Source: an uncultured archaeon
Lineage (GTDB): Archaea; Asgardarchaeota; Heimdallarchaeia; Heimdallarchaeales; Heimdallarchaeaceae
NCBI GenBank assembly: GCA_964534625.1
Contig: CAZHRF010000040.1
Location: 1-28,839 of the forward strand
DNA: 28,839 nt
Reading direction: 5' to 3'
Below the pieces are notes generated by a model. The model was not told where the DNA came from, made no database searches, and saw only the letters and a list, made by a program, of their open reading frames with translations. Positions 1,606 through 23,223 of this stretch are shown here, one piece after another. A program made the position numbers and the translations under genes. Positions within the stretch are counted from its first letter, which is position 1, and the number at the start of each line of letters is the position of its first letter.

Positions 1606-2943
1606 ATGATTCGATTCCTTAAAAACATATTTGGAAAAAAGACGGAAAAAGACGAAAAAGATATTCCTAAAATTTTTAATGCTTTATATGAATTCAATCA
1701 TGATAACATAATTGAAAAAAGCAAAGAAAAAGAAAAACCATTAATAGGAAATGCAAAATCTAATACTTTATTCTTAGAAACAGAGAAAAATAAGTTATCC
1801 GCCAAATTAGCTTTTGTTTTCATCGGTTCTACAGGTGTAAATTATTATACAGCGTTTAAAAAGCGTTTTCCTAAAGATGAGTTTAAAGGGTTAATTTTGA
1901 CTGAAACTGAAAGTCTGAACAGTTTAGATACAAAACTAACCAATTTAGGATATCCCAACATTAATTACAAGGAAGACACATTTCTCAAAGGATATGATTG
2001 GTACGATTCTAACAATGATAAACTATCTGATATCCTTAATAAAATTTTCAAAGAGGTTGAAACAACTTTTATAATTTCCAGTAATAGCCGTTTTGAAATA
2101 GGTCTTACTCAGAAAATTATTGATTCTACACACGCTTTGGGGCCTCAACCCATTCTAGTTTTGCATTTACCACATATTGAAGAAGAAAAACAGAAACAAA
2201 TCAATGCCTTAGCTTTTATGTATCAATTATTACAAGCTGAAGTTAAAAAAACAGCTCCTTTCTTTCTCTTTGATGAAATGCAACTATTAAAATCGCATCC
2301 AAAAAGAGACACAAACAATCTTATACCCCTATTGTATCCTCGTATTAGCAACTGCCTTATTGACTTGTGTTTATCCATACAGTTGTCTTCTAAACTATAC
2401 AGAACCGAAGAGGATAATTTTCATGCTCTATTCAAAAACACAAAAGGTCCTGCTAAATTATTATCATTTGATATTTATGATCAATCAACCGAACTATCTT
2501 ATCTCCTTAAAAAAACACCCTTGGCTTACAGTTATACTTCGGAAGACATAGGAACACGAGGAATGATTATTGTTCAACCATCTTTATCAGGATTAAACAC
2601 TAAACAATATCTAGTTTTCCGGGAATATTTTGCTAATAAAGATGTTCAAATTAATATCATTAAAGAGAGACAGGTAGGTAGTTTAATAAGAGGATTAGTT
2701 CTCTTTTCTAGGTTACCTAAACATATCCTTAACAGATATACAATTTTAGAACAGTTCAGGATGCAAGTTTTAGATGAAGAAGAGGCTACAAAAGAATCAT
2801 TTGATCTTATAGAATTATCTCGCTTGTGGGAATATAAAAACTATCATCTTAAAGAAATTGAAATCACAAAAGATGAATCATTAAAAGAAAAAGTTGGAGA
2901 TAAAATAATAGAAGAGAGAGATGAGAAAAAAAACAATGCATAA
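1606..2943 (+). CDS. Divergent tubulin/FtsZ/CetZ-superfamily-like protein with degenerate GTP-binding motifs
   Basis: Colinear resemblance to the FtsZ/tubulin fold: KLAFVFIGSTGVNYYTAF (T1 loop); LILTETESL; ETTFIISSNSRFEIGLTQKII (position of GGGTGTG); ILVLHLPHIEEEKQKQINALAFMYQL; FFLFDEMQLL; YRTEEDNFHALF (T7 position); GTRGMIIVQ (C-terminal domain). The ORF itself is solid; the fold call is an inference. Confidence 0.6.
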   Translation: MIRFLKNIFGKKTEKDEKDIPKIFNALYEFNHDNIIEKSKEKEKPLIGNAKSNTLFLETEKNKLSAKLAFVFIGSTGVNYYTAFKKRFPKDEFKGLILTETESLNSLDTKLTNLGYPNINYKEDTFLKGYDWYDSNNDKLSDILNKIFKEVETTFIISSNSRFEIGLTQKIIDSTHALGPQPILVLHLPHIEEEKQKQINALAFMYQLLQAEVKKTAPFFLFDEMQLLKSHPKRDTNNLIPLLYPRISNCLIDLCLSIQLSSKLYRTEEDNFHALFKNTKGPAKLLSFDIYDQSTELSYLLKKTPLAYSYTSEDIGTRGMIIVQPSLSGLNTKQYLVFREYFANKDVQINIIKERQVGSLIRGLVLFSRLPKHILNRYTILEQFRMQVLDEEEATKESFDLIELSRLWEYKNYHLKEIEITKDESLKEKVGDKIIEERDEKKNNA

Positions 2944-3188: not shown

Positions 3189-6100
3189 ATGGTGAGAAAA
3201 AAAACTAAAGATTCACTATTAAGAGGAAATGCTATGGAAAAGCGATTACGTATTTTAATGGGTGTTGTCATTTTACTTATTACCGCAGGTAGTGCAATAA
3301 CTATAAGTTATATTCTACCTACACAGACTTATATATTAGTCGACCAAATCAACGCGGATTTAATTCATAATGCACAAATACGCCCGGAAGATGATTTTAG
3401 AGCTTATAATGGACCTGATGATACAAACTATTCGGATTGGATGTATACAGGTGTTAAAAATGAAGACTCAAACTTTACAGTAAAAACCAGATTTGAGTTT
3501 TATAACGTTAGTGACCGATATGGTTGGTTATATCTTAGTTCTTCACCAGCGTATCAATTCCCTCCAGGGCGGCTTATTTTTGATGTGGTTATCAATAAAA
3601 CTGTGATCGATTACAATACTGAACATGATTATGTTGTATATGGCCAACAAAAACAATACATCTACAATAAGGACGAATCAACAGCTGGGTTTAAAGATAG
3701 TTATGTCTTGAATTATAACTATTTATGGCCATATTATATCGAAAAATTTGGTAATGGAACAGAATATGGTTTTCAAGCATATATAGCGTCCTATTTATTA
3801 CATAATGAGTTACAAGAATTACAAGATCGTCTTGCACTCAATGAAGAAGAAATTGCACACTTAGCTTTAAACCGTAATTATGCACAAGGGCAATTTGACA
3901 TTCAAGATTCAGTTTATATTCCACATAATTGGATAGATGTCAGACCAGCTTATATTGATCTAGGTTTTGATGCAGCTACAAGTTATCAAATTTTATATAA
4001 TGCTACCTACGAAGGTAAAAACTTAGGTATATTAAATGGAGATCCTGGTGCAACAAAATTTTTCTTAGATTTAGTTAAAGGGTTATATTATGACCAAACT
4101 TTCTTATCTATCAGTCCTGAGCAATTACTAGCGGATGTTTATAACATTGATACACCCGCAGAAATTCAATATGCTAAATCTTTAGCTGCCTATCTCGAGT
4201 TCTTGCTTGTTGAACCAGCATTAGATTGGTTGTGGGACAATCAAATTTCTTATGTGGCTAGGAGAACAACATGGGAATGGCTTTTTGGCGTCAACGATGT
4301 TTTACTAGGTAACAACAAGTTTCCAATTATTAGAAATATTACTGCAACGACATTTGATACTGACTCAGACATGTACTATATGGAAAAAATGGGATTACAT
4401 AATGTCAGTGAGGTTAGCCAAATAAGGGGTATTGCAAACATTCCAGGATACACTGAAGCCCATACACTTGGGCTAGACTATGATCCCGACACAGGTCTTG
4501 CTTATGCTGTTGAAGGTAAACGAGGATTAAAAATTTCAAACACAACCCATCCACTATTCTTGGCAATTGGACAGTATAAACCTTCAGGTGAGGATTTCAG
4601 AGATGTTGCTGTTGAAAAAACTACAGCAGGCAACACATGGGTCTATACGGTTAGTAATGTAGGGTTAAAAATTATTAATGCAGATGATCCCGAAAATATG
4701 GAACTAGCTACTGTTTTTAATAATTTTGGCAATGTAGACATGCAAAAACTAGAACTATACAATGATAATATATTTATTGCAAATGGTAAATATGGAATCG
4801 TTCGAGTTGGGTATTCAGGTCAAGAATTACAAACTGGTGTCGCTCAAGATAAATATACTGGTACTAATGTCAAAGCTTTAACAATTGGAACGTATACACC
4901 TAATATTATTTTTACAGCGGAAGGTACTGACGGTATTGGTGTATATACTAGCACATTTAGTGATATAACTTCGGTTTTAAATTACACTACAAATCTTAAT
5001 GATGTATACGAGATTAAGGCTTATGGTGATTACGTATATGTTTTAGATAGTGTTAGAGGGCTAGTTATTTTTGAATACGATGATTCAGCTCAGACTTTAA
5101 CCGAGCAATCATCTTACATTACAGGTACTGAACCATATCAATCAATCTATGTTAAGGATGCAAGTACGCTTTATCTGGCTCATGGCACTGAAGGATTTGA
5201 AGTTATAAGCATATCAGATCCCATAAATCCAACCCAAGAATCTACATATGATATTAATGCAAATGATGCAATAGTTTCAGATGTTTATGTTCATGGAGAT
5301 AAGGTATTTGTAGCTGAAACAACCAATGGTTTAATTCGTCTTAATATCACTGCAAGTGGATTTGAGTTTGCTAGTGAAAAACCATTTGAACGTGATCAAC
5401 TCCATACATATGTTGAATGTTGGAATGGTGAGGGATTGGAAGGACGCGATGCCCAAGTACAGCTTAATAATTGGCTATTTTTAGATGAAACGGATTACCA
5501 GAAGATGCCAAATACAGAAACCTATAACAACTATATTATTCGACCTAAAACAACTAGAGGTCTGAGAAATCAATGGTTTGAAGATTTCTTACGCCCAATA
5601 GTATATTCATCAACTGATACAGCTCTTAAATTTGACCTTCCCATGCTCGTATATCTAGCAGAACAACAACAACCAGTAGTAAACTTTAGAAGGTCAGATC
5701 TATATCACCAGCCAGAGGGGTCTACCATCCATAAGAATGTAAGCTTCATTTATTCGGGAAATTGGAACAACTTATATAATGATAAATACGCTTTTCAACC
5801 AGGTAATATATATATAACACATTCCTTACCTGGGTCGCCTCAACATGAAGCACATGAACAACAAATGACTGTAGAGCCAACAACAGGTATGGTGGTTACC
5901 AGAAAAGATAGAATGCAGTATAATACACATTCAACATTCTTTATTGAACACTATCAATATCTTAATGAAACAAGATTGGAAGAATACGTAGATGAATTGA
6001 TTGCTGATAATCCCAACTTAGGATCAGGCGATAAATCAAACTTAATTGCCAACTTAAAAGAGTCCTTTTTATACCGAACATGGCATACTTCAAATCCAGG

Positions 6101-6323
6101 CCTTACTGGTTCAATGGGAACTTTGTTCTGGAAGGAAGAAGTATATGAAGCTACAGAAAAATGGGGAGATGATACAAAAGAACAATTCATCAATCGTATT
6201 AATACAGCAGATAGCTATAGAACATATGGTGCCTTTATTGCAATGGCACTCCTCACAGCTGGTTTTATAGTAACCTCTGTTGTTTTAGATAAAACTAAAC
6301 CTAAATCTCCAGAAGAGAAATAA
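3189..6323 (+). CDS. CD36/scavenger-receptor-class-B-like membrane protein with an inserted LVIVD-type beta-propeller
   Basis: N-terminal TM (ILMGVVILLITAGSAITISYIL) and C-terminal TM (YGAFIAMALLTAGFIVTSVVL) flank a large ectodomain. CD36-like blocks in the correct order: YSDW...TRFEFYNVSD; KQYIYNKDES...DSYVLNYN; RRTTWEWLFGVND; GLHNVSEVSQI; EGRDA; WFEDFLRPI; HEQQMTVEPTTGMVVTRKDRMQYN; LFWKEE. LVIVD-like repeats (LAYAVEGKRGLKI, IFIANGKYGIVRV, YVYVLDSVRGLVIF, LYLAHGTEGFEVISISDP, VFVAETTNGLIRL) lie at ~4450-5360. Confidence 0.75.
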   Translation: MVRKKTKDSLLRGNAMEKRLRILMGVVILLITAGSAITISYILPTQTYILVDQINADLIHNAQIRPEDDFRAYNGPDDTNYSDWMYTGVKNEDSNFTVKTRFEFYNVSDRYGWLYLSSSPAYQFPPGRLIFDVVINKTVIDYNTEHDYVVYGQQKQYIYNKDESTAGFKDSYVLNYNYLWPYYIEKFGNGTEYGFQAYIASYLLHNELQELQDRLALNEEEIAHLALNRNYAQGQFDIQDSVYIPHNWIDVRPAYIDLGFDAATSYQILYNATYEGKNLGILNGDPGATKFFLDLVKGLYYDQTFLSISPEQLLADVYNIDTPAEIQYAKSLAAYLEFLLVEPALDWLWDNQISYVARRTTWEWLFGVNDVLLGNNKFPIIRNITATTFDTDSDMYYMEKMGLHNVSEVSQIRGIANIPGYTEAHTLGLDYDPDTGLAYAVEGKRGLKISNTTHPLFLAIGQYKPSGEDFRDVAVEKTTAGNTWVYTVSNVGLKIINADDPENMELATVFNNFGNVDMQKLELYNDNIFIANGKYGIVRVGYSGQELQTGVAQDKYTGTNVKALTIGTYTPNIIFTAEGTDGIGVYTSTFSDITSVLNYTTNLNDVYEIKAYGDYVYVLDSVRGLVIFEYDDSAQTLTEQSSYITGTEPYQSIYVKDASTLYLAHGTEGFEVISISDPINPTQESTYDINANDAIVSDVYVHGDKVFVAETTNGLIRLNITASGFEFASEKPFERDQLHTYVECWNGEGLEGRDAQVQLNNWLFLDETDYQKMPNTETYNNYIIRPKTTRGLRNQWFEDFLRPIVYSSTDTALKFDLPMLVYLAEQQQPVVNFRRSDLYHQPEGSTIHKNVSFIYSGNWNNLYNDKYAFQPGNIYITHSLPGSPQHEAHEQQMTVEPTTGMVVTRKDRMQYNTHSTFFIEHYQYLNETRLEEYVDELIADNPNLGSGDKSNLIANLKESFLYRTWHTSNPGLTGSMGTLFWKEEVYEATEKWGDDTKEQFINRINTADSYRTYGAFIAMALLTAGFIVTSVVLDKTKPKSPEEK

Positions 6324-6358
6324 TTTTTCCTTCATTTTTTAATCTTTTTTCTTTTTTT
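6324..6358 (+). terminator. Oligo-T terminator region after the CD36-like gene
   Basis: Several T-tracts immediately downstream of the stop codon. Confidence 0.45.
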
Positions 6359-6664
6359 CGTTTTTCCATAGACTAAAGAACGATTTATAATTTGCATCGA
6401 GTGTTTTTAAAGTCATTTGGAGAACTTTGGAATACCCCATTTGTATGGGGGGTATTTTCTCTTGATTTCTGGTAATTCATCTTGCTGTTTGGTATATGTA
6501 ATGTATTTTCGTTCTTTTTTGGGTTTTTCTTTTTGTTCTTTCCAATTGTCGATCCGATCCGAAAGTGCGAAGATATACATCAAACGGCATTTTTCCGATA
6601 CATCTCATAGTACATCCAATTGCTCTTGGATGGGATACATTCGAATTTTTTGACTTACTTGCAC
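6358..6664 (-). pseudogene. tnpB: Truncated tnpB (IS200/IS605 family OrfB) pseudogene, N-terminal HTH region only
   Basis: Minus-strand reading from GTG 6664: MQVSQKIRMYPIQEQLDVL*DVSEKCRLMYIFALSDRIDNWKEQKEKPKKERKYITYTKQQDELPEIKRKYPPYKW, then a 1-nt frameshift at ~6435 into YSKVLQMTLKTLDANYKSFFSLWKN. This matches the TnpB N-terminal pattern (K.R.YP..EQ...L....CR..YN.AL; S.VLQ..L..LD..YK.FF). In-frame TGA at 6607-6605. No RuvC or Zn-finger region follows. Confidence 0.85.
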
Positions 6665-6759
6665 TTTTGATCACTTAATATATTAATAGTGTTTTATATC
6701 TTTAAATATATGTGCGAAATTCATTCCCCCTAAAGAATGGGAACTTCTTTCGCAATCAG
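6358..6759 (-). mobile_element. IS200/IS605-family (IS1341-like, tnpB-only) element remnant with left-end hairpin
   Basis: Upstream of the tnpB start is a subterminal hairpin, GCGAAA(6714-6719)...TTCCC/GGGAA...TTTCGC(6748-6753), resembling archaeal IS605-group ends. It is bordered on the minus strand by TTTAA (6764-6760), a plausible target/TAM pentamer. Confidence 0.7.
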
Positions 6760-6826
6760 TTAAATATACTAGTAATAACTAATTATGCTCACCGAATTAC
6801 TTATCAGTAGCACATTAGTGTTATAG

Positions 6827-6890
6827 TTTATATAGTATAGACTATACATAGTATCCATAGAACGTGTGTAAGAATATATATTTAAGAGGT
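6827..6890 (+). promoter_or_regulatory. Putative top6B promoter: TATA-like TTTATATA, adjacent inverted repeat and Shine-Dalgarno GAGGT
   Basis: TTTATATA 6827-6834; GTATAG-A-CTATAC 6835-6847; GAGGT 6886-6890, six nt before GTG 6897. Confidence 0.4.
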
Positions 6891-6896
6891 AGTTGC

Positions 6897-9800
6897 GTGT
6901 CTAATTCCGAAACAAAAACAAAAAAAATGAGTGCAGCAGCATTTTTTAACGATAACCGAGCCATTGCTGGATTTGGCAATTCTATGCGAGCTGTTTTCAC
7001 TAGCATAAGAGAATTAGTTGAAAATGGTTTGGATGCTGCTGAAAACAGAGGTATTAATCCTAAAATTACAGTTGAATTGCGAAGACTCTCTAGTGACGAA
7101 ATTAAGGAATTGCTTGACATTAGAGAGCATCAAAAACTCGAAAAACATATAGACTTTCTTCAACTTACTTGTAGAGACAATGGGATTGGAGTTTCTGGTA
7201 ATCAAATTGCTGATTTGTTTGGTCGTGTCCTTACTGGTACAAAATATGGGGTAATTCAAACTAGGGGGAGATTTGGTTTAGGAGCTAAAATGTGTCTCCT
7301 TTATTCCATGTCTTCAGTAGACTTACCTGCAAAAATAACCAGTCGTTATTTCATGAATGATATAACACATGAAGTTCATTTAATGATTAACTTAGAGAAA
7401 AATGAACCCATTATAATGGAACAAAAAGAGTATTTGGAAGGTCATCCTAAGTATTTAAATGAACCTGGTACTGAAATTCAGATTTCTTTCACCGGTGCAT
7501 GGAATCTTGCCAAGAATAGTATCAAAGAATATTTCAGACAATTAGCTATTATTACTCCTTATGCTTCATTTGAAATAAAACTCCCTAGTGATGATGATAA
7601 TCAAGAATTTGATGTTTTGGAATATGATTATGTTGTTGAAGATATGCCCCCTCATCCTAAAGTAGTGAAAATACATCCTTACGGATGCGACATTACTCAA
7701 TTTAAAGCTGAACTGTCAGGCACTGATGCAAAAACGCTTACAGAGTTTCTTTCAACACATTTTATGGGAGTAAATGAACGAGTTGCGGAAGGATTCTTTC
7801 ATTTGCTTGAAATTGACCCAAATAAAAACCCCAATGATTTATCTACTAATGAGATCAGGCGTATTGTTCATGAGGGGTTCGTTAAAGCCTATCAAGAAGC
7901 AAAAGATGTAAAAAGAAAAAGAGATAGAATTTTTCAATTTGATGCTCCAAAAGGTGATGCACTTTCTCCATTAGGGGCAAACAGACTTAAGAAGGGATTA
8001 GAAAAAGAATTAGAACCTGTTTTTGTTGAAGCTATCTCTAGACCACCCAAGGCATATTCAGGACACCCATTTATTGTTGAAGCAGCAGTAGGATATGGAG
8101 GTGGAGTGAATAAGGCAGCTCAATCTCGCAGTAGTTATTCATCAGATAACAAAATTATCTACAGATATGCCAATCGCATACCCTTAATTTTCGGGGCAGG
8201 AAATGACGTAATTACAAAAGTTGTTAACTCTATTAAGTGGAATGAATATGGACTAACACGGCAGTCTGATCCGTTGTCTATAGCAGTATCAGTTGTTAGT
8301 ACAAAAATTCCTTTTCCTGAAACCAGCAAAGAATATATTTCCTCTACACCCGAATTAGAAGAAGAAATTCGATTAGCCCTTCAACAGTTAGGAAGAAGAT
8401 TAAAGACCTACTTAGGAAGAGCAAAGCGCAAACGCAGAGAAAATGTTAGACTTTCTCGTTTTGTCAAATCTGCACCAGTCGTAATTGAAAATCTTGTACG
8501 GATCCTTGATGATGAGAAAATAACTTTTACAGACTTAAAACAAGAAATAATGATTACTTCTGCAGCATTAGCACATGGAACACAAAAAAAAGTGAAACTG
8601 TTTAAACCTCTTGGTACAGATATCTTTCAAGCAAATATTTGGTGTTCCGAGGATATACAAGAAAAACTCCATAATAATAGCATAAGTTCCATAGGCCGTT
8701 TTCTTTATACAGACGGATCTGTTTTATCAAAGTTGATAGATGTTTCTCAGGTAGATATCTCTGATATCAAACGTAGAACGATCTACGAATTTGATAAAGC
8801 AGAAATGTCCCCACCATTATTTAATAGATATTTAATACCCAGACAAATAGAAAAACGCTTTAAAAAGAAAAAATCTGATAAATCAAAATCTCTCAAAGAA
8901 TCGCTATATAAACGATGGATTCAAAATAGTTACCATTATTTAGCAACATCAGAAGTGAAGCTAGGAAGAGTCAATGGTTTATTGGAAAGATTGCTGGAAA
9001 CAAAAAAGAATGAGTTGCTCGAGAGACACATAGAAAATAAAAGTCAACACATTGAGCAGCATAAAGACAAGCCAATTCAAAAAGGAACCTTGGATAATTA
9101 TCTTAAACGAGAAGAAAAAGATGAGATGAAAGAAAAAACTAAAATACCAGATGATATTGAATCGTTAGATAAATTATCAGTAAAACACATTTTTCCTTCA
9201 TTTGAATGGTTGAAAGAAAATACAGAAAGCATACAACCAAATCAGACCCTTGAAGAATTTATTTTTGATATAAAACGCCCAAATTCCACAAGATATTATG
9301 AAGATTTAACAAAATCAATTATAGATCATATTGTTAAGGTTTTTACACAATTATCGGAAAAATTTCCTGAATTTGAAAAAATCATTGTAACTAAAATGTC
9401 TCCTGATTGGATGGATGGATATACTAAGAATGCTTTTCATAGAAGAAATATTGAGACTGTCTCTGATTTTATCAATTTTCCTTTAGAAGATCTTATTGAA
9501 ATTAGAGAGATGGAGAGGAGCCTCTATGCAGATTATATTTCTTATTTAGGTAATCAACAATCAATTTCTTTAACAGAATTAGGTATTTCTGATAAAGAAG
9601 AGGAATTATCAAAAGAGATAAAGATGGTTTATTCGTTTCTTAAGAAGAACAACATTCATACCCTTGCCAAATTTCTTTCTCTTCCTATTATTTCCGTTTA
9701 TGAGAAGAGATTTGACAAACTTGCTTTATTTCTATTGGATGAATCAAAGGTTCGTATTTTGGACTATATTAAGAAAAAAGAAGAAAGATATGATTTATCT

Positions 9801-12800
9801 CATATTAAAATGATTCCTAGAGACTTAGAAATAGCTTTAAGGAAGAACCAAATTTTTACTACAACAGAATTTTTATCCACATCCATCACAACCCTTAGGG
9901 ATGATCTTAATTTTACTAAAAAAGAAGTAATTAGAATAAAAAATCTCATAGGTACAGAATTACCTAACTGGATAGAAAACAAGACATTACTAAGTAAACT
10001 TGGTATTAATTCGCTTGAAGAAATTTTTTACAGTTCGCCTGAAAAATATGATTTAGAAGCAGAAGATAAAAAAGATTATTTGAAGAATTTAAAAGTTCTA
10101 AGGACTCCAATTGTATTTGCACTTCCTGAATTGCGACCCGAAGCATATTTTCTAAAGAAAGTGGGTATAAACTGTGTTGGGCGTTTTCTAATCTGGCCTA
10201 ATATCGACCTAGCAGAGATATTAGAGACAAGTGTTGAAAATATCCTAAAATTGAAAGAAAAAATAGATCCAACCACATTTCAGCAAAATATCGATAATTT
10301 TGGCAAAGACTTATCGATTATTAAACATCTTTATCCACGTTTGTACAAATATTTTGAAGGACATAACATTTCTCTTCAAGAACTATTTTATCTGTATCCC
10401 ACAGAAAAACTGCCTTTAGATGAAAATAGTTGGGAAAGGATATCTCATTTAAACTACCTAGCCCAAAAAGATATTTTAGAGATTGTAAATCATATAAACA
10501 TTAGTTCTAGAAAAAAATCACAACTAAGACAAGCACTGCTCCATCTCAAGGGAAGAAATTACCTCACTATAAGATCATTGTTAGATACCCATCCAGATGT
10601 TTTAAGGAAAGAACTACCCAGAAAATCTATCAGAAAGCCAGTCTTGGAGATCTACTCGAAACTAAAAAGTCCAAAAGCATCAAAAGAAGAGTTTACAAAT
10701 GATATCCTCCTAGTAGGAGAATATGATGATTTCCTTCAATCTTTTGCACTTCCTACATTAAGAATTAATGGTTTAGATATTCACGATTGTGATAACCTTA
10801 TGCTTAATGGTATCGTTTCCATTCAACAAATGTTCGATTATAACACAGTCAAATTGTCTGATATCACAGGTCGTACACAAAAAGAGATACAAGATATATT
10901 AAGTGAAATTCAAATAACTAAAAAATGGGCACCATTCTTTACTCGAAAAGGTCGTACAGGATATGAATCGCTTATATTTTTTGATTTTGAAGAATCTGAA
11001 CGTTTTTCATCTGATGAAATTGAATCGCTCATTAATTGTGGCTATTCTTCTGTAGATGAGTTATTTTATTTAACTAACAAGTTAACATTTTCGTCTCCGG
11101 TGGTAAAATGGGAAGTTATTCATAAATTCAAGCAATTACTTAGATCTCCCCTTACACTTGTCAGTTGGGAAGAAAAAATAGTTAAAAAAATCACGAATGA
11201 AGAGACAGGGGAAGAGGAGGAAGTGGAAGATACCAAACATATTACGCTTTCTACCCCTCAACTGAATACACTAAGAGAAGAAAATATAACAAGAATAATT
11301 GACTTGTTGTTCACAAAGTCCGATAGAATAGCTAAAATACTTAATATCGGTGTAGAAAAAGCTTCAAAATTGCAAAGAAATGTTAGAATATCTGATACGG
11401 GTATAAATCTAGCTGATTTTAGTATATTCAAACCAGAAATCATTAAACAACTTGAAAACATAAACATCGTAACAATTGAGGATTTATATTTTTCAACAGC
11501 ACAAGATAAGTGGAAACTGGATAATATTCCTTGGAGCATAATAGAGACGTTTAAGAAGATACTGAATCTTCCTCTTATCAACCTTAAAGATATGCTAGAT
11601 GCTGAGATAATTGATTCTTTAACTAAAGCCAATATATCTACCTTACTCGGATTTCTTTTATCATCTCCAAAACATCTAATGCAAAAAACGGGGATCCCTG
11701 ACGAAAGATTTGAGAATATCCGAAGTGGTTTAGATCTCTCCGAACTTTACAAATATTTCTCTCTACCAATCTATTATTTACCTGAAGTTAGTTTTGATCT
11801 GACTGAAGAGTTACATGAAAATGAAATAACACATATCATCGATTTTATAGACAAAAATTCTTCCGTATTAGGAAGGATAATTAACAGTGGTGAAAAAAGG
11901 GTTGAAATTGGCGACCTTAAAGATTCATTAACAGTAAACAAGATTTTTGGTAGATATGAAGAATTGGGCATTTTTGCTTTTGAAACAAAACTTTTCGATA
12001 AGAACGAGCAACGCAAACTTAGTCGTGACTCTATTTTCATGTTCGAAGGGCTTCAAACAATACAAGAAATCTATTATTTAGTAGAAAAAAGTTATTATCA
12101 ACTGAACCTTGACTTATGGAATAAGATATCTGCTATTAAAAACATTATGGGACTTCCTCTCCGAATGTTTTCAGAGATATCAGATTATTCTATGGAGATT
12201 TTGAAGAATAATAATATTACCTTAGTATATCAATTATTATTTATTCCGGATGGGGATATAACTGAAGATGAATTGTTGTATGATAATGTATCAACCTACT
12301 CTTCTACTTTAATCGATTTTAGGTCATTTCATTATTTTGGCCATATACCTGCAAGGGTTTATAATGCTGAGTTTCTTAAGGATTATGTTGAAAATTTTGA
12401 AGACGTTGCGTTGCTAGATGCCATAACGTCTAAGAAACTGATTGATCATTTTGCGAATAAAGAGAGACAATTTATCATAGAAAAAGTTAATATTAATCTC
12501 ATACGTTCTTTGTTAGAATTACCTCTACAAGTTAGTCCTTTCATAGAACAAATTAGCACAGAGATGAAACCCGAATTATCTACAACAAAGATAGGTGAAC
12601 TATTCACAGATCAATACGATGAGTTTTCAGCAATTGCAAAGATACGAGAACAACTAAAAGAGTACAATGCATTCAATGTCTTAATCCGAGATATTTCATT
12701 TCCTGTCGTTAATCTGGGATTGGAAGGAGACGCAGCTCTAAAACTGAGTAAAGCATCAATTAATACACTCATCGAATTTTATTCTACACCCATAAAAACA

Positions 12801-15800
12801 TTAGCGGATATAGCGGATGTCTCCCAAAAATATATTAGAGAAACAAAAGAACAGATGATTTATTCTGAACTTGTTTCTATACACGAAGAAAGATCTCATC
12901 CTATAAACGAAAGCTCAATAATATCTCAAGAACAAATTAACAAATTAAATGAAATAGGGATTAACTCTATTGAAAGATTCTATTTCTCTTCTCAACTAAT
13001 TGGGGTTGCAGACATTTTATCCTTGGAAGATTATAAATTAGTTAAAGAAATATTATCTGGTTCTTTAAGATTCATTAGTTTTCTTTCTTTTGAGGAATAT
13101 CAGCGATTAGAAGAACACAATATGAATTCTATTATTGACCTATCATTGTTAACAAAACAAAAGCTATTCACTATTACAAATAATATGATTTACCAAGAGT
13201 TTCATATTTTAGATCTAATATCTTTTGATGAGATAGCAATAAAGAGAGAGAAAACAGCCATTCCTCTTACTGCTTGTCCATCCATAAAAGAAGATTATTT
13301 AGAAAAAATAACTAATATAGGTATTCACTCCATTCAAGATTTTATTTCACGAATGGATGAAATAAGAGAATCGCATCCAAATCTAGTTAACCTTAATATA
13401 TTTAAAGAAGTGGAATTATTCAATTCGTCTATTGCTTTTCTCCCACTTCCGATTAAAGATAAGAATAAACTCCTATATTCAGGTTTAGGTGATATTCTCA
13501 CATTTGTTACAGAAGATCCTTCAACTATCAGTTTGATTCTTGACTCGTCTGAGAAACAAATAAAGAAAATAAAGAATAAAATCTCTGTAGATACCCTCAA
13601 GAAACAAATAGAGAATAATGGAATCATACTTGATAATTTTAACCTTCTTACTCCCAACAAAACAAGATCATTATTACGTAGCGGAAAAAAGACAGTACAA
13701 GATTTATATGCTGCTTATTATCAAGCAGGTGTTGTTACGGATGTTTCAGAAACATATCTAGAGAGCTTCATAAAAGATTGCGAGAGTTCTATTTATTGTA
13801 TAGATGAACTCGAATTTACAGTTAAAACGCTTCTTGCTAAAAATGATATTCTACGAGTAATTGATCTGATAAATAGTGATATATCTAATATACTTAAAGA
13901 GTGTATTCCAGAAAGTCACAAAACACTTATGGAAGCAAAACAAGGGACAATCACTTTAAATAAAGGCAACAATATCACTATTGATGAGGAATATATAAAC
14001 CAACTTAAGACTTTCAAACTAGAGCTGGAAAATTTGACAGTAGAATCAATTTATGCTTTTATTCCTCAGTATCTCAAAGAATACTCCGAAACAATTCAGA
14101 TAGAAAAAATAAAGGAGATAACATTACTTTCAAAACTAATTAGTACTTTATCCAAATCGATTTTAGCCATAGACGAGTTTTCATTGAAAACTAAAACTGA
14201 GCTTTGGGCATTAGGTATAAGGAATATTATTGAAATTTTTGTACTTCCACATGAAAAATTACTGAATATTGAATTTTCGGCTCGAAAAGAAGTGAGAGAA
14301 TTTGTTAATACAATCTCTATAAACAAATTGCTATCAATTATACTTCCTAGCAATTTATCACACACTAATGCTGAAATTCAAAATAAACTGCAATCTTATA
14401 ATATCAATAACCATCTAGAATTGTTTAACTTCATTCCCCACACACTTCTATATTTAGAAGAGGAATTATACTCCTTTATTAAACATGTTAGTGCACATCT
14501 TTTATATCCTATCATCTGGGTAAAGCCCATTTTAGAACTGGAACATCATATGATCAAAAGTATAGTGGAGAATGGTGGGGGGAATATCCTTTCTGCTTTG
14601 AGCTTACTTTCTTTTGGTGATAACTGGGATAATACCCTATATGAAAAGAAAAAAGAGCAACTTATCAAAAGTATATATAGCACTCTAGATGAAGTCAAAC
14701 CTCCGAAATGGACCATTAAAATCGCAGATACTTGTTTATTAGATAATTACAATTTAGGAAATAAAAAAACCAAAATTAATGAATTTTACATTTCTGAATT
14801 GTTTACTTTTAGTAGTCTTTTCCAACAAGATATAAGTTTAGCAGAAGAAGTACAAAAAATAGTTACGAATTTAGAGACAATACCTATTTCTTTTGTTGAT
14901 GATCTAACAAAAGAGCAATGTAGAACACTTTTGGAACTTAATTTCTCAAATTTGTCATTGTTTCTCTTTTATCCTGTTCCGTTGTTATCCAAAATTTTAG
15001 ATGTTTCAGAAGAGAAAATTTCTCAAATTAAAAAGAATATCAACTTAAAAGACTTGAATAGTAGAAATAAAAAATTTGGAATAGATATTGCATTACTCGA
15101 TTCTATTTCAGAAACTACAAAAAACAAACTAAAAACTACAGGGTTTGAATCTATTTATCAACTCATTAGTGTAGATTTAAATACAGTGGATTTATCTAAA
15201 GAAGAAAGAGAGAAAGTAGAAAAATCATTCTCTATTCTTTATACACCCATGATACTAGCAGCCAAAAGGTTCAATATAAAAGATAAGGAAATAAAAAGAT
15301 TACATGCCCAATCCCTTTATACCTATTATGATCTTTTAAATCTTCCAATACTTGAATGGAAAAAACTATTAAAACCTTTGTTTGATTCAGCAGATAAAGA
15401 CAACAAACAATTCATCAAAGAACTAGAATTAGCATCTAAAGATGGCATGGACATAATAAAACTTGATCTTCCAAAAAGGTCAACAGAACAATTACAAAAT
15501 ATAGGATTGGATACAATTGAACACTTCTGTTATGCTCCTGTTGAATATATAGCTGATAGAACATATTTACAAGAAGACGCAGTTACAGAGTTAAAATCAA
15601 AACTTTTCAAAAGTTTGGCATTTTTGCAAGAATTATCACCCCAGACTATAATATATGCATATAACCAGAAAATTTATACAGTTATAGATCTTGTGAATCA
15701 TTATCACGATCTACCAGAAAAAATACAAAAGGAAGTAGAACCAGCTATAGAATCGATCCGTGATGTTAATATATTATGTTTTAAAGAAGATAAAAAAGAT

Positions 15801-18800
15801 GTTGAACAACGTTTAATTAGTGCAGGATATCAATCATATAAAGACGTACTCTGTGATCCTCAAATACTACAAAAGAAAGAAGTGTATTCAAGCATAGCAC
15901 CCTATTTACTTGCAAATATAAGATTTCTAAACATAGATAAAAAGACTGAATCAAAATTAAGAGAAAATGGGTTCCATACTATAGCTGATCTCATTATTTT
16001 ATCACCTTCATTTGTGGGTAAAAATGCAAGAATTAAGATAGCTGATATCACCAAACTAGTCTCAACAATAAATATTGCAGATATTCAAAAGAATATCGAA
16101 CAAGAACAAAATAAACATTTTACTGATTTAGAATTTGTCTCTAACAAAAATCAAGAAACACTCAAATCCATGGGGATATATTCATACGAGGATTTACGCA
16201 ATATTAGAGATTACCCTTGGTTATATAATACTAAAGAATTAGAAAAAGTTACTGTGCAAATAGAAAAAATTCTAAAAGTATCTATTCTAAATTGTCCTCA
16301 AATCTACGCTCTGTCTATTGTTGATATTGAACAAATGTTTTATTCAAATAATGTTTACAAACTAAAAGATCTATTAATTAGTACAACTTCAGTTAACAGA
16401 GATGAATTGGATGATTTCATTCAGAATATCGATGTTTTTCAAGAAAAGAAAGAAGAAAAATATATTCAGATGAACATCTTCCTTCAGGATATTTCCCCTT
16501 CTGATTTATTTACCAAAGATGTAGACATTACAGGAGAATATCTAATAGATCTCATTTCAACAATTTTTGAGAACACAGCTACACTTTCAGAAAAAGGAAA
16601 GTTTCTTCATAAAATACTAAAAACTCCTATAACAATAATTACCAAATTAGATCAACACCAAATTTCTAAACTGAAAGAAAATAATATACAAGTAATAGCT
16701 GATTTATTTGTAAAACCAGCAGAATATATTCAAAATATTCTTAGTAAGAAACTTTCTAAACATATTGAAACCATGCTTCCAAAACTAGATATGACAACTC
16801 TACAAAAATATTTCGAGAAAAGAGTGAAAACCACGGATCTTGTTTTCTTATCCGAAAAGGTTTTAGAAGAAGTAACAAATGAGTTTGATATCATTGATCA
16901 ATTATATTTAGCAATTAATAGTGATAAATCCCCATTTAATAAGTCTGTTACTACAAATATTATGAAAAAATTGGATGAATCCCTTCTATTAGTTAAGATT
17001 CCTAAATTGACTATAGATAATTGGATCAAGCTACATGAAACTATTCCTACTGTAAAAGACTTTCTAATGTCCCATCCTCATCGACTGGCAGATGTATGCG
17101 GACTTGATGAACAAGCAATTCTTTCTCTACAAAAAAGTATTACTGATGGTCAATTTATCCGTGCTCCCAGAATAAGTAAAAATAAAATATTCACAGGTAC
17201 TTGTGTATTAAGGTTAAAAGAAGAAGGGATCATTGATTATCCATCTTTATTCTCTTTTGCATCCAACAATTCTAATTTAACCATTAAACTCAAACATCAA
17301 ATCAATTTTGTTACAGGATATGATTTAAATGAATTTGATAGATATAATCTATCTCTTACTTTGAAAGATCTTATTTTCTTATCCTATCACATTGATGAAT
17401 TAACAGATACGGACAAAAAATTAAATGAACTCAAGGAAATGATTGATGTTTTTCTATCAGATGGTAAAGGTTTAGAGGAAATCTTTCCCGAGTTAGATGA
17501 GAAGCAGTTAGAAGAAATTGGATATTATACAATCGAATTTTTATTAATACTTCATGAAAATAATACAGAGATATTTGAGGAGATACTTAATTTATTCGAT
17601 GATAACATTTCAACTCTCATATTAAATTTAATAGACGATTTGTCCCGTCATCCTATTCTTCTTAAAGGTCCTGGATGGGATAACATCAAACTGTTTGAAG
17701 ATCGCCCTTATTCCTCTATTAAAGAGCTCTTTTTCATTCCATCTACTGAATTAAGAGAATTAGATAATTCTTTATATCTTAATTTTAGGAAAATAAATCC
17801 TTCTTTCTTGGAAGAATTAAAAGATGAGCTTGTTACTATTTCTTTACTGTCTTTTGATGAACAAACAATATCGCATTTAGAACGCTATGAGCTTAAATTT
17901 ATCGAGGAAGCACTGATTTATAATATTCAATCAAATTCTCAAACAAGCAAATTATGGCAATATTCGGAAGAGATCCGACGAATCATGTATATGAATCCCT
18001 TACAACTACCTAAAGTTGTTCAAAATGAAATTATTGCGAACGAGGTTGATGAAAAGCATCTTAAGACCATCTATGATTTCATTGTATTTTGCAAGCAAAA
18101 TGATAATAAACAAATACAGAAACAGTTTTCTTCAATATTACAAGACCTTAATCCAGAAAGTATCAATAAATTTGAAGAACAAGAGAGAGAGAGGTTTAAT
18201 AGTTTCATTAAAGATGGTAATCTTATCAATCAGTTGAAAGAAAATAATATTGACAGCATTGGCCTTCTTACACCCTTGATTAACAGCAAACTACCAGATA
18301 CATTAACTGATGAAATTAGAAATCTTATTTCTACACTTACTGCACCTGTGGGATTAATCGTAACTCATTCTACAATCGAAAGTAAATTAAGTAAGCAAGG
18401 AGTAGCGCAAGTTTTTGACTTCACTCAACCTCCAAATAATGATAAATTCTTAGACGTCTATCTTACAGATACTCAAAAACAACGCGTTCTTTCAAAACTG
18501 GAGAATTTAACATATCCTAAACTCTGGGAAGAATTAGAAGACAGAAGTACCCGCTTGGAAAAATGTCTTTTCCTTAAAAAGGAATATTTAGATGCACTTA
18601 GAAGAGTAGGTTATACTCATATCTACCACTTGAATTTACCAGCAGGATTAATATCTACTTACACCAATCTTAATAAATCTGAAGTTCAAGAAATTACAGA
18701 TATACTTTCCTCTCCCATATATTTGCTTAATGACTTATTTATTGGACATCCTCAAGCAATTATGAAATTATATAAACAAGGAATGCTAACGCTAAAAGAC

Positions 18801-22615: not shown

Positions 22616-23199
22616 TGAGCCATAGAAAAAGACAATTCCTTAAGGTTATTTTAGCGGGGGAAGCAGGTGTTGGTAAAACAAGTCTGAGAAGGGCTTATCT
22701 TGGAGAAAGTTTCGTTAAACAACACCTATCCACAATAGGAGCTGATTTTTCAAGCATGAAAAAACACATAAATGATAAAATAGTAAATTTTCAAATTTGG
22801 GATTTAGCAGGGCAAGAATTCTTTGAAAATGTCCGCATGATGTATTATCGAGGAGCATTGGGTGCCTTATGTGTTTGGGATGTTACTGAAATTGAAAGTT
22901 TGGTAGATTTAGAGAGATGGATTAATGAATTAGAAAAGAATACTGGGCGAGGAATTGTTCCCTTCATAATTTTAGGCAATAAAATTGATCTTTTAGATGA
23001 TAATGAAAAGGAATTAATCAGAGAAAAAGCAAAAGATTTTGTTGATAAATACAACAAAAAATTCAATAATAAAGGTTTTAAGGTCGATTTTTATGAAACA
23101 TCAGCTAAAACAGGAGAAAATGTAGATAAAGCATTTGAAGATTTAGGTGAAAAAATTATTGAATATATAGAATTCAGAAGAAAAATGAGAAATAAATGA
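22615..23199 (+). CDS. Rab-like small GTPase (Ras superfamily)
   Basis: G1 GEAGVGKTS, G2 STIG, G3 WDLAGQE, G4 GNKID, G5 ETSAK; RabF-like IGADF, FQIW, YYRGA, CVWDVT. TAATG overlap with the upstream gene and a GGAGG SD. Confidence 0.95.
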   Translation: MSHRKRQFLKVILAGEAGVGKTSLRRAYLGESFVKQHLSTIGADFSSMKKHINDKIVNFQIWDLAGQEFFENVRMMYYRGALGALCVWDVTEIESLVDLERWINELEKNTGRGIVPFIILGNKIDLLDDNEKELIREKAKDFVDKYNKKFNNKGFKVDFYETSAKTGENVDKAFEDLGEKIIEYIEFRRKMRNK

Positions 23200-23223
23200 G
23201 GAGTAAAATACGGAGATAAAACA

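Follow-up and report, generated by a model that had tools for sequence, protein, structure and literature searches.

Proteins of the tubulin superfamily are defined by GTP-driven assembly. Among the archaeal members, the CetZ proteins are tubulin-like cell-shape proteins and GTPases with an intact signature, and in eukaryotes Misato/DML1 is a divergent member with a non-filament function. In αβ-tubulin, Lys254 of the β subunit sits on the N-site GTP of the α subunit, and the non-catalytic T7 residue Lys248 of the Asgard tubulin AtubA corresponds to it (10.64898/2026.02.15.705738). The thaumarchaeal FtsZ-like protein Nmar_1262 carries the variant signature AGKAGSA, is without a T7 loop, and did not polymerise in yeast (PMC3684127).

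Here we describe a gene, pTub, in a 28,839-nucleotide stretch (the window) of a Heimdallarchaeaceae (Asgard) genome. An earlier note had proposed a pseudo-tubulin at positions 1606–2943; the open reading frame (ATG start, 445 residues) has exactly these coordinates, every quoted motif lies where it was reported, and pTub is confirmed as a real, conserved gene. All window positions given below are on the forward strand. pTub is the degenerate orthologue of Tub1, and Tub1 and Tub2 are two ancient paralogues of one Asgard order, encoded together with a polytopic membrane protein of ~465 residues (Mem).

Predicted fold and superfamily membership

The AF2 model of pTub (pLDDT 89, pTM 0.86) has a two-domain architecture, with a Rossmann-like N-domain, the core helix H7 and a C-terminal domain. 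Foldseek returned TubZ, FtsZ and CetZ at probability 1.00 (TM on target 0.68–0.77). The structural match covers residues 62–416, and thus both domains, with VIA-align Z values of 22–28 within the superfamily: 27.9 for TubZ (PDB 4ei7; rmsd 3.6, 334 aligned), 25.8 for a second TubZ/RepX structure (3m8k), 27.0 for CetZ2 and 26.8 for another CetZ (4b45, 3zid), 23.2 for BtubA, 22.9 for FtsZ and 21–22 for tubulins. The order of tubulin/FtsZ elements read earlier from the sequence is therefore upheld by the predicted fold. A different Rossmann-like fold was rejected, as the best SDR match reached only Z ~10 and covered the N-domain only, and the pseudo-tubulin reading survives this comparison. Taking fold and descent together, we regard it as practically certain that pTub is a two-domain protein of the tubulin/FtsZ superfamily descended from Tub1.

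Sequence comparison is far less direct. As a single sequence pTub matches no superfamily entry in Pfam (RFC_C only, E 0.097), has no matches in the PDB (phmmer) or NCBIfam, and is not recognised by the FtsZ equivalog TIGR00065 (cut-off 295 bits), against which an intact orthologue scores 35.7 bits; intact Tub1 orthologues match PF00091. The genome encodes a separate FtsZ on another contig (C34). A profile of the whole family matches RepX (5.5e-13), CetZ (5.5e-10) and FtsZ (~1e-5), which agrees with the earlier remark that pTub resembles CetZ and tubulin more than FtsZ; the cited blocks LP...E....INA....QL and LFDE..L are residues 188–209 and 221–227. A profile of degenerate members only has RepX as its sole match (1.4e-5), and hhalign aligns it with the Tub2 family over 328 columns (98.9%, E 3e-17).

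By both structure and profile, TubZ/RepX is the best match, and a C-terminal helical extension like that of TubZ/RepX is seen in Tub2 in the complex model discussed below. Unlike TubZ/RepX, pTub is inherited vertically across the order beside pyruvate kinase and has no GTP signature; the pTub loci are chromosomal and syntenic in five genera, and show no sign of the TubR and centromere context in which plasmid and phage partition tubulins are found. CetZ shares with pTub an archaeal host and the same two-domain fold, and the T6 and T7 motifs of intact Tub1 orthologues are tubulin/CetZ-like. The nearness of the two is a ranking by similarity. The degenerate-only profile no longer matches CetZ, and pTub differs in its 60-residue N-terminal extension, its restriction to one order, and its operon, which also encodes a second paralogue and a polytopic membrane protein. 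Membership among eukaryote-type tubulins finds no support in Pfam or in the profile matches, which include no tubulin at E up to 10. Neither Pfam Misato nor Tubulin_3 matches pTub at E up to 1, and Misato is not among the structural matches listed, an absence that does not exclude a relationship.

The N-terminus begins with a hydrophobic-then-basic motif, MIRFLKNIFGKK (1606–1641), a candidate membrane-targeting helix of a pattern common to Tub1 and Tub2 of the order. The same 12 residues occur in frame in an 83%-identical relative whose DNA differs here by two synonymous changes, which supports the long start codon. The amphipathic helix suggested earlier is plausible given the conserved pattern, but is not significant against shuffled sequences (μH 0.68, equalled in 102 of 1000 shuffles, with most relatives worse), and we do not claim it as shown; AF2 gives the segment a pLDDT below 50. 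The following extension, residues 21–58 (1666–1779), packs on the core with a pLDDT of ~95 and is strongly conserved in the degenerate clade, with P21, N25, F30, I35, I36, L46, G48, S52, T54, L55 and E58 at least 90% conserved in the family.

The nucleotide site of pTub

To place the motifs, pTub was aligned in MAFFT to intact relatives and to the FtsZ of the same genome, in HMMER to RepX/TubZ and CetZ, and in hhalign to the Tub2 family. These methods agree on the strings previously assigned to the T1, T4, T5/H5, T6 and T7 positions, and show that six of the seven nucleotide-contact elements have been rewritten. At T4 (residues 158–166; 2077–2103) SSNSRFEIG replaces the tubulin signature GGGTG[ST]G, with GGTG aligned to SNSRF, so the signature is indeed erased; the equivalent is G[SA]GGTGVG in intact orthologues, GLGKGTGTG in the genome's own FtsZ, GSGGGTGAAG in Tub2 and GLgGGTGTG in RepX. 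The T3 region is remodelled to YKEDTFLKGYDW (1966–2001), where the clade-invariant F126, G129 and W132 replace the G-T-x-K-Q-F/Y of intact orthologues. At T6, D223-E224 (2272–2277) replaces D-N, with loss of the guanine-contacting Asn, and H7 has Tyr244 (2335–2337) at the position of a conserved Asn in intact orthologues and Tub2 (Asp in FtsZ). The T7 loop reads RTEEDN (residues 266–271; 2401–2418), an alteration of NxDxxD as had been reported: two independent alignments put Asn271 at the catalytic position, that of the second Asp in FtsZ and of a Glu in RepX and intact orthologues (SSDLNE). Most of the degenerate clade has Asn here, and Asp is kept in Heimdallarchaeum (genomes G004 and G007).

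What remains of T1 is IGSTGVN (1819–1839; GVGGAGSN in FtsZ). The IGSTG that the earlier note considered retained (residues 72–76; 1819–1833) is present in the window protein, which keeps G73, G76 and N78 together with acidic residues in T5 and T7, but it is a remnant within the genus, and its conservation does not extend to the degenerate clade as a whole. We also see that GGTG, the T6 Asn and the H7 Asn are absent from all 18 Heimdallarchaeaceae genomes compared, and intact in two sister families (f2 and f3). In the degenerate clade bulky Phe and Trp residues occupy the phosphate loops, and the former pocket of pTub has new clade-invariant residues (F126, G129, W132 and F163). The features expected of a GTPase, namely the T4 signature, the guanine and phosphate contacts and the T7 catalytic acid, are missing from pTub apart from a partial T1. 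Judged from these motifs, pTub has very probably lost canonical GTP binding and would be unable to activate hydrolysis. As far as computation can show, the refuting condition of normal GTP binding and hydrolysis named in the earlier note does not apply. Nmar_1262 offers a precedent for motif-eroded superfamily members being retained in genomes, although it belongs to another lineage and family, and neither an intact paralogue as partner nor a membrane-protein module is known for it.

Descent from Tub1 and the Tub1–Mem–Tub2 module

In sister families the operon runs Tub1, Mem, Tub2, and its Tub1 keeps T1, T4 (GGTG), the T6 Asn, the H7 Asn and a tubulin-like T7 (D-L-N-E-F). In Heimdallarchaeaceae the Mem–Tub2 pair is inverted, giving Tub2 and Mem on one strand and, on the other, pyruvate kinase, pTub and a CD36-like gene, an order found in 10 of 10 genomes and in the single contig of the nearest relative. 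In the genome of the window, Tub2 lies on another contig (C74, 934–2076, minus strand). Pyruvate kinase (118–1542 in the window; Pfam) adjoins Tub1 in degenerate and intact families alike, and the synteny of the chromosomal pTub with pyruvate kinase, Topo VI and the Mem–Tub2 pair holds across five genera. In the phylogeny, the Tub1 and Tub2 clades each repeat the family structure. The degenerate Tub1 clade, which includes pTub, is monophyletic with a support of 100, its stem (1.28) is the longest in the tree, and pTub branches are three-fold longer than those of Tub2. By its position beside pyruvate kinase, its place in the Tub1 clade and its linkage to Mem and Tub2, pTub is the Tub1 orthologue, and these computations show that the Tub1 nucleotide site was rewritten on the stem of Heimdallarchaeaceae.

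The Tub1–Mem–Tub2 module is undescribed and is named here. Across families, the states of Tub1 and Tub2 are intact/intact, dead/intact or eroded/eroded, and such graded states across sister families are not a feature of Nmar_1262. A neat scheme of reciprocal degeneration, in which Tub1 is dead in one family, Tub2 in another and the other partner is always intact, fails because in one family (f4) an eroded Tub2 stands beside a Tub1 that is itself partly eroded. Tub1 and Tub2 are restricted to one Asgard order, and a search of 36 genomes from other families of the class did not find the module in 35. The remaining genome (G052) has it on a 4-kb contig near-identical in type to f3, and either faulty binning or a transfer may account for this.

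Selection and loss

Of 30 other genomes of the family, 26 carry one copy of pTub, and its dN/dS of 0.15–0.30 in seven pairs, compared with 0.04–0.055 for Tub2, indicates purifying but relaxed selection. Full-length open frames are seen in five genera, at identities as low as 28%, and together with the dN/dS values this led us to reject a pseudogene. In the degenerate clade 19 columns are invariant and 23 nearly so, and many of these are clade novelties; the statistics were computed over kin and are descriptive only. The former nucleotide face is conserved at the level of the protein average and has new invariant residues. A separate partner may therefore bind this face, for which a simple cap model does not account. 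In two genomes (G008 and G042) pTub has been cleanly deleted, and Tub2, Mem and the CD36-like gene are kept. These three are therefore not absolutely dependent on pTub. That one sub-lineage has lost pTub cleanly suggests that its role is accessory and modulatory.

Predicted docking of pTub on Tub2

The earlier note had suggested interaction prediction with FtsZ/tubulin paralogues as a check on pTub. The predicted complex of pTub with Tub2 scored 0.76, and the best of three controls 0.00; among solved complexes 58 of 80 attain this score, and among mismatched pairs 2 of 110, counts that hold only roughly here, where our own alignments were used. Prediction runs had at least 78% of contacts in common, with a partner pLDDT of at least 84. 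In the model the T7-face surface of pTub (residues 261–348; 2386–2649), including N271 of the T7 loop, lies against Tub2 loops T1, T2, T3, T5 and T6. This surface is the best conserved in the clade (mean BLOSUM 2.78 versus 1.89 for the rest). In the same model the C-terminal helical extension of Tub2 reaches the next subunit. Solved structures contain many longitudinal contacts of the tubulin family, and the score may therefore show likeness to filaments that the predictor has learned, instead of binding. On balance, we give even odds that pTub binds Tub2 with its T7 face on the GTP face. Of the roles that had been hypothesised for pTub (cap, anchor or regulator), such docking, as modelled, would fit those of cap and regulator.

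The predicted arrangement is that of the αβ-tubulin intradimer contact. Like α/β-tubulin, BtubA/B and Asgard AtubA/B, it involves two superfamily paralogues in a longitudinal contact, with a non-catalytic T7 residue (Asn271 of pTub) facing the GTP of the partner, which would stay unhydrolysed for that reason. It differs in that pTub stands outside the tubulin clade (no sequence match; Z 22, versus 27–28 for TubZ/CetZ). Both subunits of tubulin bind GTP, whereas pTub is without a recognisable site. There is no sign of microtubule-like assembly, and the gene context is membrane-associated.

The downstream CD36-like gene

The conserved downstream neighbour of pTub (3189–6323) encodes a family-specific hairpin membrane protein of 1044 residues, CD36-like by weak signal. 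A TM scan gives two transmembrane segments and an ectodomain of ~970 residues with a β-propeller. In Pfam, CD36 is sub-threshold in 8 of 10 members and LVIVD is found in 9 of 10. A CD36 fold is not confirmed, because the AF2 model is poor (pLDDT 44.8, with only the propeller at residues ~425–730 confident) and the profile had no match among solved structures. The gene is found in 24 of 24 family genomes and at full length in none of 16 sister-family genomes; it adjoins pTub on the same strand in 18 of 19 loci, through three flank arrangements. Oligo-T runs and TATA-like boxes occur in the intervening spacer (157–245 bp), whose sequence thus does not support co-transcription.

A proposed role for pTub and its alternatives

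The best explanation, which we hold to be probable, is that pTub is a nucleotide-dead protein that serves Tub2 at the membrane as a non-catalytic partner or cap. On the stem of Heimdallarchaeaceae, as the computations show, the Tub1 site was rewritten, new invariant aromatic residues entered the former pocket, the Mem–Tub2 pair was inverted and the CD36-like gene arose directly behind pTub. The T7 (bottom) face of pTub would sit on the GTP-bearing (top) face of canonical Tub2, as β-tubulin does on the non-hydrolysed GTP of α-tubulin, and the interface GTP would be kept because Asn271 replaces the catalytic acid. With its own top face nucleotide-free, pTub would end or modulate a Tub2 filament, as a cap or heterodimer partner, and not extend a polymer that depends on GTP. 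A membrane location of the assembly would follow from the adjacent membrane proteins and from the basic-hydrophobic N-termini of pTub and Tub2. The cap or modulator role taken separately is tentative. Somewhat less likely still is a membrane-bound two-tubulin system of Tub1, Mem and Tub2, with labour split between paralogues as in α/β-tubulin but independently evolved, in which one subunit has in Heimdallarchaeaceae become wholly nucleotide-free and keeps the GTP of the other locked in a non-hydrolysable state.

pTub might instead be a neofunctionalised cytoplasmic scaffold or adaptor for the downstream CD36-like receptor, independent of Tub2. The full-length receptor gene occurs exactly where Tub1 is degenerate, the two genes stay adjacent when their flanks change, and their relaxed rates are similar (dN/dS 0.30 for pTub and 0.21 for the CD36-like gene). 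However, adjacency within a family may simply be inherited, the spacer does not support co-transcription, the cytoplasmic tails of the receptor are just ~20 and ~10 residues, and the receptor persists in G008 and G042 where pTub is gone. We consider this reading unlikely, and it is compatible with the Tub2-partner explanation.

Two further readings are less probable again. The remnants of T1 and the acidic T5 and T7 residues of the window protein, in an intact fold whose remodelled loops are conserved and not random, could indicate a non-canonical pocket that binds GTP or another nucleotide and drives self-polymerisation. This is improbable, since T1 is unconserved across the clade, T3, T4, the T6 Asn and the H7 Asn are all replaced, bulky Phe and Trp lie in the phosphate loops, and the thaumarchaeal Nmar_1262 failed to polymerise even when its variant signature had been restored (PMC3684127). 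The conserved columns, many of them clade-new, the full-length frames in divergent genera and a dN/dS far below 1 in all seven pairs likewise make a functionless relic nearing loss highly improbable, although the dN/dS is four- to six-fold above that of Tub2, the branches are long and G008 and G042 have lost the gene cleanly.

As a selected fold without recognisable nucleotide contacts, pTub offers a natural experiment of a rare kind, in which the fold can be studied free of the nucleotide, and comparison is aided by an intact paralogue in the same genomes and intact orthologues one family away. If the pairing with Tub2 is real, it would be an independent Asgard parallel to α/β-tubulin, with the interface GTP shielded by a non-catalytic T7 residue. 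If the two-tubulin reading is also true, the families would present natural stages by which a heterodimer becomes obligate and its GTP structural, tied to a CD36-like surface receptor and set in the class of archaea closest to eukaryotes.

Homologues of pTub are all annotated 'hypothetical protein', so motif- and Pfam-based censuses of archaeal cytoskeletal genes overlook such members. A word-based search with pTub found one relative only, and the family has only 28 representatives among 1.8 billion clusters. One homologue (UJG40516.1) is encoded in the closed genome of Candidatus Heimdallarchaeum aukensis.

Fold and nucleotide site of the pseudo-tubulin

The window's ORF at 1606..2943 (+) encodes a protein of 445 aa (pTub), exactly as earlier stated, and the motif strings quoted for it were all confirmed: IGSTG at residues 72-76, SSNSRFEIG at 158-166 and RTEEDN at 266-271. 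The N-terminus reads MIRFLKNIFGKK. As a single sequence, pTub gave no match in Pfam, PDB or NCBIfam, and an exhaustive HMMER search among 1.84 billion representatives returned only 28 relatives. The named homologues, each annotated as 'hypothetical protein', come from Candidatus Heimdallarchaeaceae (hereafter the family); one of the genomes, that of Ca. Heimdallarchaeum aukensis, is closed.

An AlphaFold2 model was generated from an alignment of 23 full-length members of the protein family (A1), with a mean pLDDT of 89 and a pTM of 0.86. The top Foldseek matches in the PDB were TubZ, FtsZ and CetZ only (probability 1.00, TM on target length 0.68-0.77). VIA-align, an independent structure search over 48,161 chains, placed TubZ 4ei7 best (Z 27.9, rmsd 3.6, 334 aligned), followed by CetZ2 4b45 (27.0), CetZ 3zid (26.8), TubZ 3m8k (25.8), BtubA (23.2), FtsZ (22.9), and tubulins, AtubA/B and OdinTubulin (21-22). 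The profile of this protein family (the family profile) matches RepX/TubZ (5.5e-13), CetZ (5.5e-10) and some forty FtsZ entries at ~1e-5 and weaker. To check that these matches were not owed to the intact members, a profile was built from 20 degenerate sequences alone (A5); its single significant match is RepX (1.4e-5), and it aligns with the profile of Tub2, a paralogous tubulin-like protein, with 98.9% probability (E 3e-17, 328 columns). Structure searches and sequence profiles therefore agree on the tubulin/FtsZ fold that the earlier note had proposed. Its alternative, another Rossmann-like fold, is rejected on the same structure and profile matches, including the A5 control: the next fold in VIA-align comprises generic short-chain dehydrogenases, at Z ~10 and with coverage of the N-domain only. 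The C-terminus of pTub (residues 418-445, window 2857-2940) is modelled as a Lys/Glu-rich helix-tail with pLDDT 50-63, and is ~25 residues longer in the window's genus than in the rest of the degenerate clade.

Motifs were mapped by alignment with the genome's own FtsZ and second tubulin-like protein, and collected in a per-genome table. In A1, distant members of the protein family have V-I-G-[VI]-G-G-A-G at T1; precisely where the window protein has SSNSRFEIG, they have G-[SA]-G-G-T-G-V-G. Given in the order FtsZ, intact orthologues and pTub, T1 reads GVGGAGSN, GIGGAG and IGSTGVN (partial); T3 reads GxGxxP, G-T-x-K-Q-[FY] and EDTFLKGYDW; T4 reads GLGKGTGTG, G[SA]GGTGVG and SSNSRFEIG; T6 reads P-N, D-N and D-E; the H7 residue is Asp, Asn and Tyr244; and T7 reads NVDLAD, SSDLNE and RTEEDN. 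Asn271 is at the catalytic-acid position of T7, where the HMMER alignment to RepX (F-D-A-S-E-F) also places it; this position is Asn in most family genomes and Asp in both Heimdallarchaeum genomes. The GGTG, the T6 Asn and the H7 Asn are gone from 18/18 family genomes tabulated, which bears out the claim of an erased GTP signature and supports the reading of pTub as a pseudo-tubulin. The T1-like IGSTG that was said to be retained is indeed a partial T1 in the window protein, but is not conserved across the degenerate clade. From these motifs, we infer that pTub does not bind GTP. The degenerate clade has its own T4 pattern, x-N-x-x-F-x-x-G, and invariant F126, G129 and W132 in T3. The former pocket is remodelled and not merely decayed, since N160, F163, F126, G129 and W132 are each found in at least 90% of the clade.

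Origin within a Tub1-Mem-Tub2 module

Whole-genome searches found the gene once in most family genomes, whereas sister families of the same order (f2, f3 and f4) gave a weaker match. The sister-family loci show a three-gene operon beside pyruvate kinase (PK), Tub1 -> Mem -> Tub2, with frames that abut or overlap, encoding Tub1 (~450 aa, intact motifs), a polytopic membrane protein without a Pfam family (Mem, ~465 aa) and Tub2 (~390 aa). There, Mem is translationally coupled to both tubulin-like genes, with overlaps of 1 and 8 nt. In the window's genome the Mem-Tub2 pair lies on another contig (L002/L046), with Mem at L002 2076-3476 (-) and an orthologue at, for example, L025 4561-5955 (-). Tub2 of this genome is fully canonical (GSGGGTGAAG, D-N, Asn). 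The layout Tub2 <- Mem, (PK ->) pTub -> 1044-aa protein -> Topo VI-B is seen in ten family genomes and on a single contig of an 83%-identical relative, and in the window assembly the two contigs break off 255 bp and 117 bp short of where they would be expected to join. pTub thus keeps Tub1's PK-adjacent place.

A tree was built by maximum likelihood (quick search, LG+G4) with the window genome's own FtsZ as root. In it, Tub1 and Tub2 separate with SH-aLRT of 85 and 82, and the family structure is repeated in each. The degenerate clade is monophyletic (100) on the longest internal stem, of 1.28 substitutions per site vs 0.76 for the same family's Tub2. The nucleotide motifs were therefore lost once, on the Heimdallarchaeaceae stem. 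With the family profile, Tub1 was found in every sister-family genome searched (f2 1/1, f3 12/12, f4 3/3) and essentially nowhere in the class's other families (1/22, 0-1/2 and 0/12).

The only other-family genome of the class with the module, G052, carries an f3-type Tub1-Mem-Tub2 (L045, contig C52, 4055 bp) that nests inside f3 in the tree, and may reflect a binning error or lateral transfer. In f4, Tub1 (L031 of G031, 5745-6989 (+); L033 of G029, 5884-7143 (-)) is eroded to GAGSTGVG or GSDSIGVG and the first T7 Asp is gone, while Tub2 (L031 8329-9507 (+); L033 3337-4515 (-)) is eroded at T4 (SSDGFST or SSGTFSS) and T6 (D-L or D-S). As both paralogues are affected, nucleotide-motif erosion has occurred more than once in the module. 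The only canonical FtsZ of the window's genome (L001 1009-2235 (-), contig C34) has a Lys in its signature loop (GLGKGTGTG) and an acidic N-terminal extension of ~75 residues; searches of the 90%-complete assembly with PF00091 and the family profile found neither another FtsZ nor any CetZ or bona fide tubulin.

Relaxed selection and a clean loss

For seven close pairs, dN/dS of pTub was 0.30, 0.26, 0.23, 0.17, 0.16, 0.17 and 0.15, compared to 0.04-0.055 for Tub2, 0.09 for PK and 0.21 for the 1044-aa protein; Mem, at 0.08, is under strong constraint. In five genera, at identities as low as 28%, pTub keeps an uninterrupted full-length frame. Together, these values and intact frames show that selection on pTub is purifying, yet weaker by a factor of four to six than that on Tub2.

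Of the 30 other family genomes, 26 carry pTub, either complete or truncated at a contig end. In G008 and G042, which their PK identity of 83% marks as sisters, an empty slot of ~230 bp separates PK from the 1044-aa gene (L048, G008:C23, 4526-4756; L049, G042:C114, 10074-10320). No pTub was found in these assemblies (86% and 89% complete), where the degenerate-clade profile matches Tub2 only. pTub has thus been cleanly lost at least once, with Tub2, Mem and the 1044-aa gene retained.

A family-specific surface protein downstream

The 1044-aa hairpin membrane protein (window 3189-6323) has two TM segments, at about 19-45 and 1013-1035, short tails of ~20 and ~10 residues and an ectodomain of ~970 residues with a central beta-propeller. 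It is full length in 24/24 family genomes and 0/16 sister-family genomes, a distribution that matches that of the degenerate Tub1. Its gene follows pTub on the same strand in 18/19 loci, and the two remain paired across three different flank arrangements. Co-transcription finds no support in the spacer of 157-245 bp, where TATA-like boxes and oligo-T runs occur. Sub-threshold Pfam matches to CD36 in 8/10 orthologues suggest a CD36-like protein; LVIVD repeats were matched in 9/10. The CD36 assignment is tentative: the structure model is poor except for the beta-propeller, and the profile found no match among solved structures.

Predicted docking on Tub2

Interaction prediction with a paralogue, as suggested in the earlier note, was run for Tub2 (alignment A3) with pTub (A1). 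Scores were 0.72, 0.78 and 0.76 (median 0.76), against 0.00 for the best of three controls. The 0.76 mark is reached by 58/80 solved complexes and 2/110 mismatched pairs, counts that apply only roughly because our own alignments were used. At least 78% of contacts were common to the runs, and partner pLDDT was at least 84. The predicted geometry is the canonical longitudinal one, with the nucleotide face of Tub2 (residue 22 in T1, 52-54 in T2, 75 in T3, 153-159 in T5, 191-203 in T6/H6, and the C-terminal helix) against the T7 face of pTub (261-266, 271, 279-281, 314-348 and others). Solved structures include many protofilament contacts of the superfamily, so this pass may echo them, and the prediction shows likeness to superfamily contacts, not binding. 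Docking is independently fitted by two observations. Within the degenerate clade, no surface is better conserved than that of the predicted-interface residues (mean BLOSUM 2.78 vs 1.89 for the rest, Mann-Whitney p 0.003; vs 2.0 for the former nucleotide loops, p 0.02), statistics that are descriptive because kin are not independent; and, compared with the sister families, Tub2 here is if anything more canonical.

In the docked model, Asn271 would face Tub2's GTP at the catalytic acid's expected site. This may parallel beta-tubulin Lys254, which lies over the non-hydrolysed GTP of alpha-tubulin (10.64898/2026.02.15.705738). As its own top face lacks a nucleotide, pTub would not extend a GTP-dependent polymer but end or modulate a Tub2 assembly. 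The assembly may be located at the membrane, where the polytopic Mem, the hairpin receptor and the N-termini of Tub1 and Tub2 all point; these N-termini have a few aromatic or aliphatic residues and then a polybasic run, with a net charge of +2 to +9. An amphipathic membrane-binding N-terminus had been suggested for pTub: the hydrophobic-then-basic pattern stands, and is common to Tub1/Tub2, but the amphipathic moment of the N-terminal 12-mer is not significant vs shuffles. The biochemical core of this proposal, no GTP binding together with Tub2 binding, is a prediction on both counts.

Relation to described proteins

Intact Tub1 and Tub2 may belong to groups described by Santana-Molina et al.; term searches of two texts on the subject found no mention of a motif-less member or of the Tub1-Mem-Tub2 operon. 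A precedent for a motif-eroded archaeal superfamily member is Nmar_1262, which did not polymerise (PMC3684127); FtsZl1 and FtsZl2 occur in other contexts (PMC2875224). Five points are new here: pTub is orthologous to a gene that is intact elsewhere, and its loss of the motifs dates to a single family stem; it belongs to an order-wide Tub1-Mem-Tub2 module; its distribution and its position both couple it to a surface protein specific to the family; it is under relaxed but real selection and has been cleanly lost once; and it is predicted to dock on Tub2, with its T7 face against the GTP face.

Other genes of the window

The window (G+C ~31%) also encodes PK, a giant Topo VI-B, Topo VI-A, a Ras-family GTPase and a HEAT-repeat protein. 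The Topo VI-B (4155 aa, 6864-19331) has a GHKL and transducer core and then a very long helix-hairpin-helix-type array; it adjoins the module in all relatives examined, with the N-terminal 600 aa 74-85% identical. After Topo VI-A, a tight co-directional block (20816-25596) encodes a 599-aa protein with no Pfam match, a Ras/Rab-like small GTPase and a HEAT-repeat protein of 790 aa; the start of the GTPase gene overlaps the stop of the gene before it.
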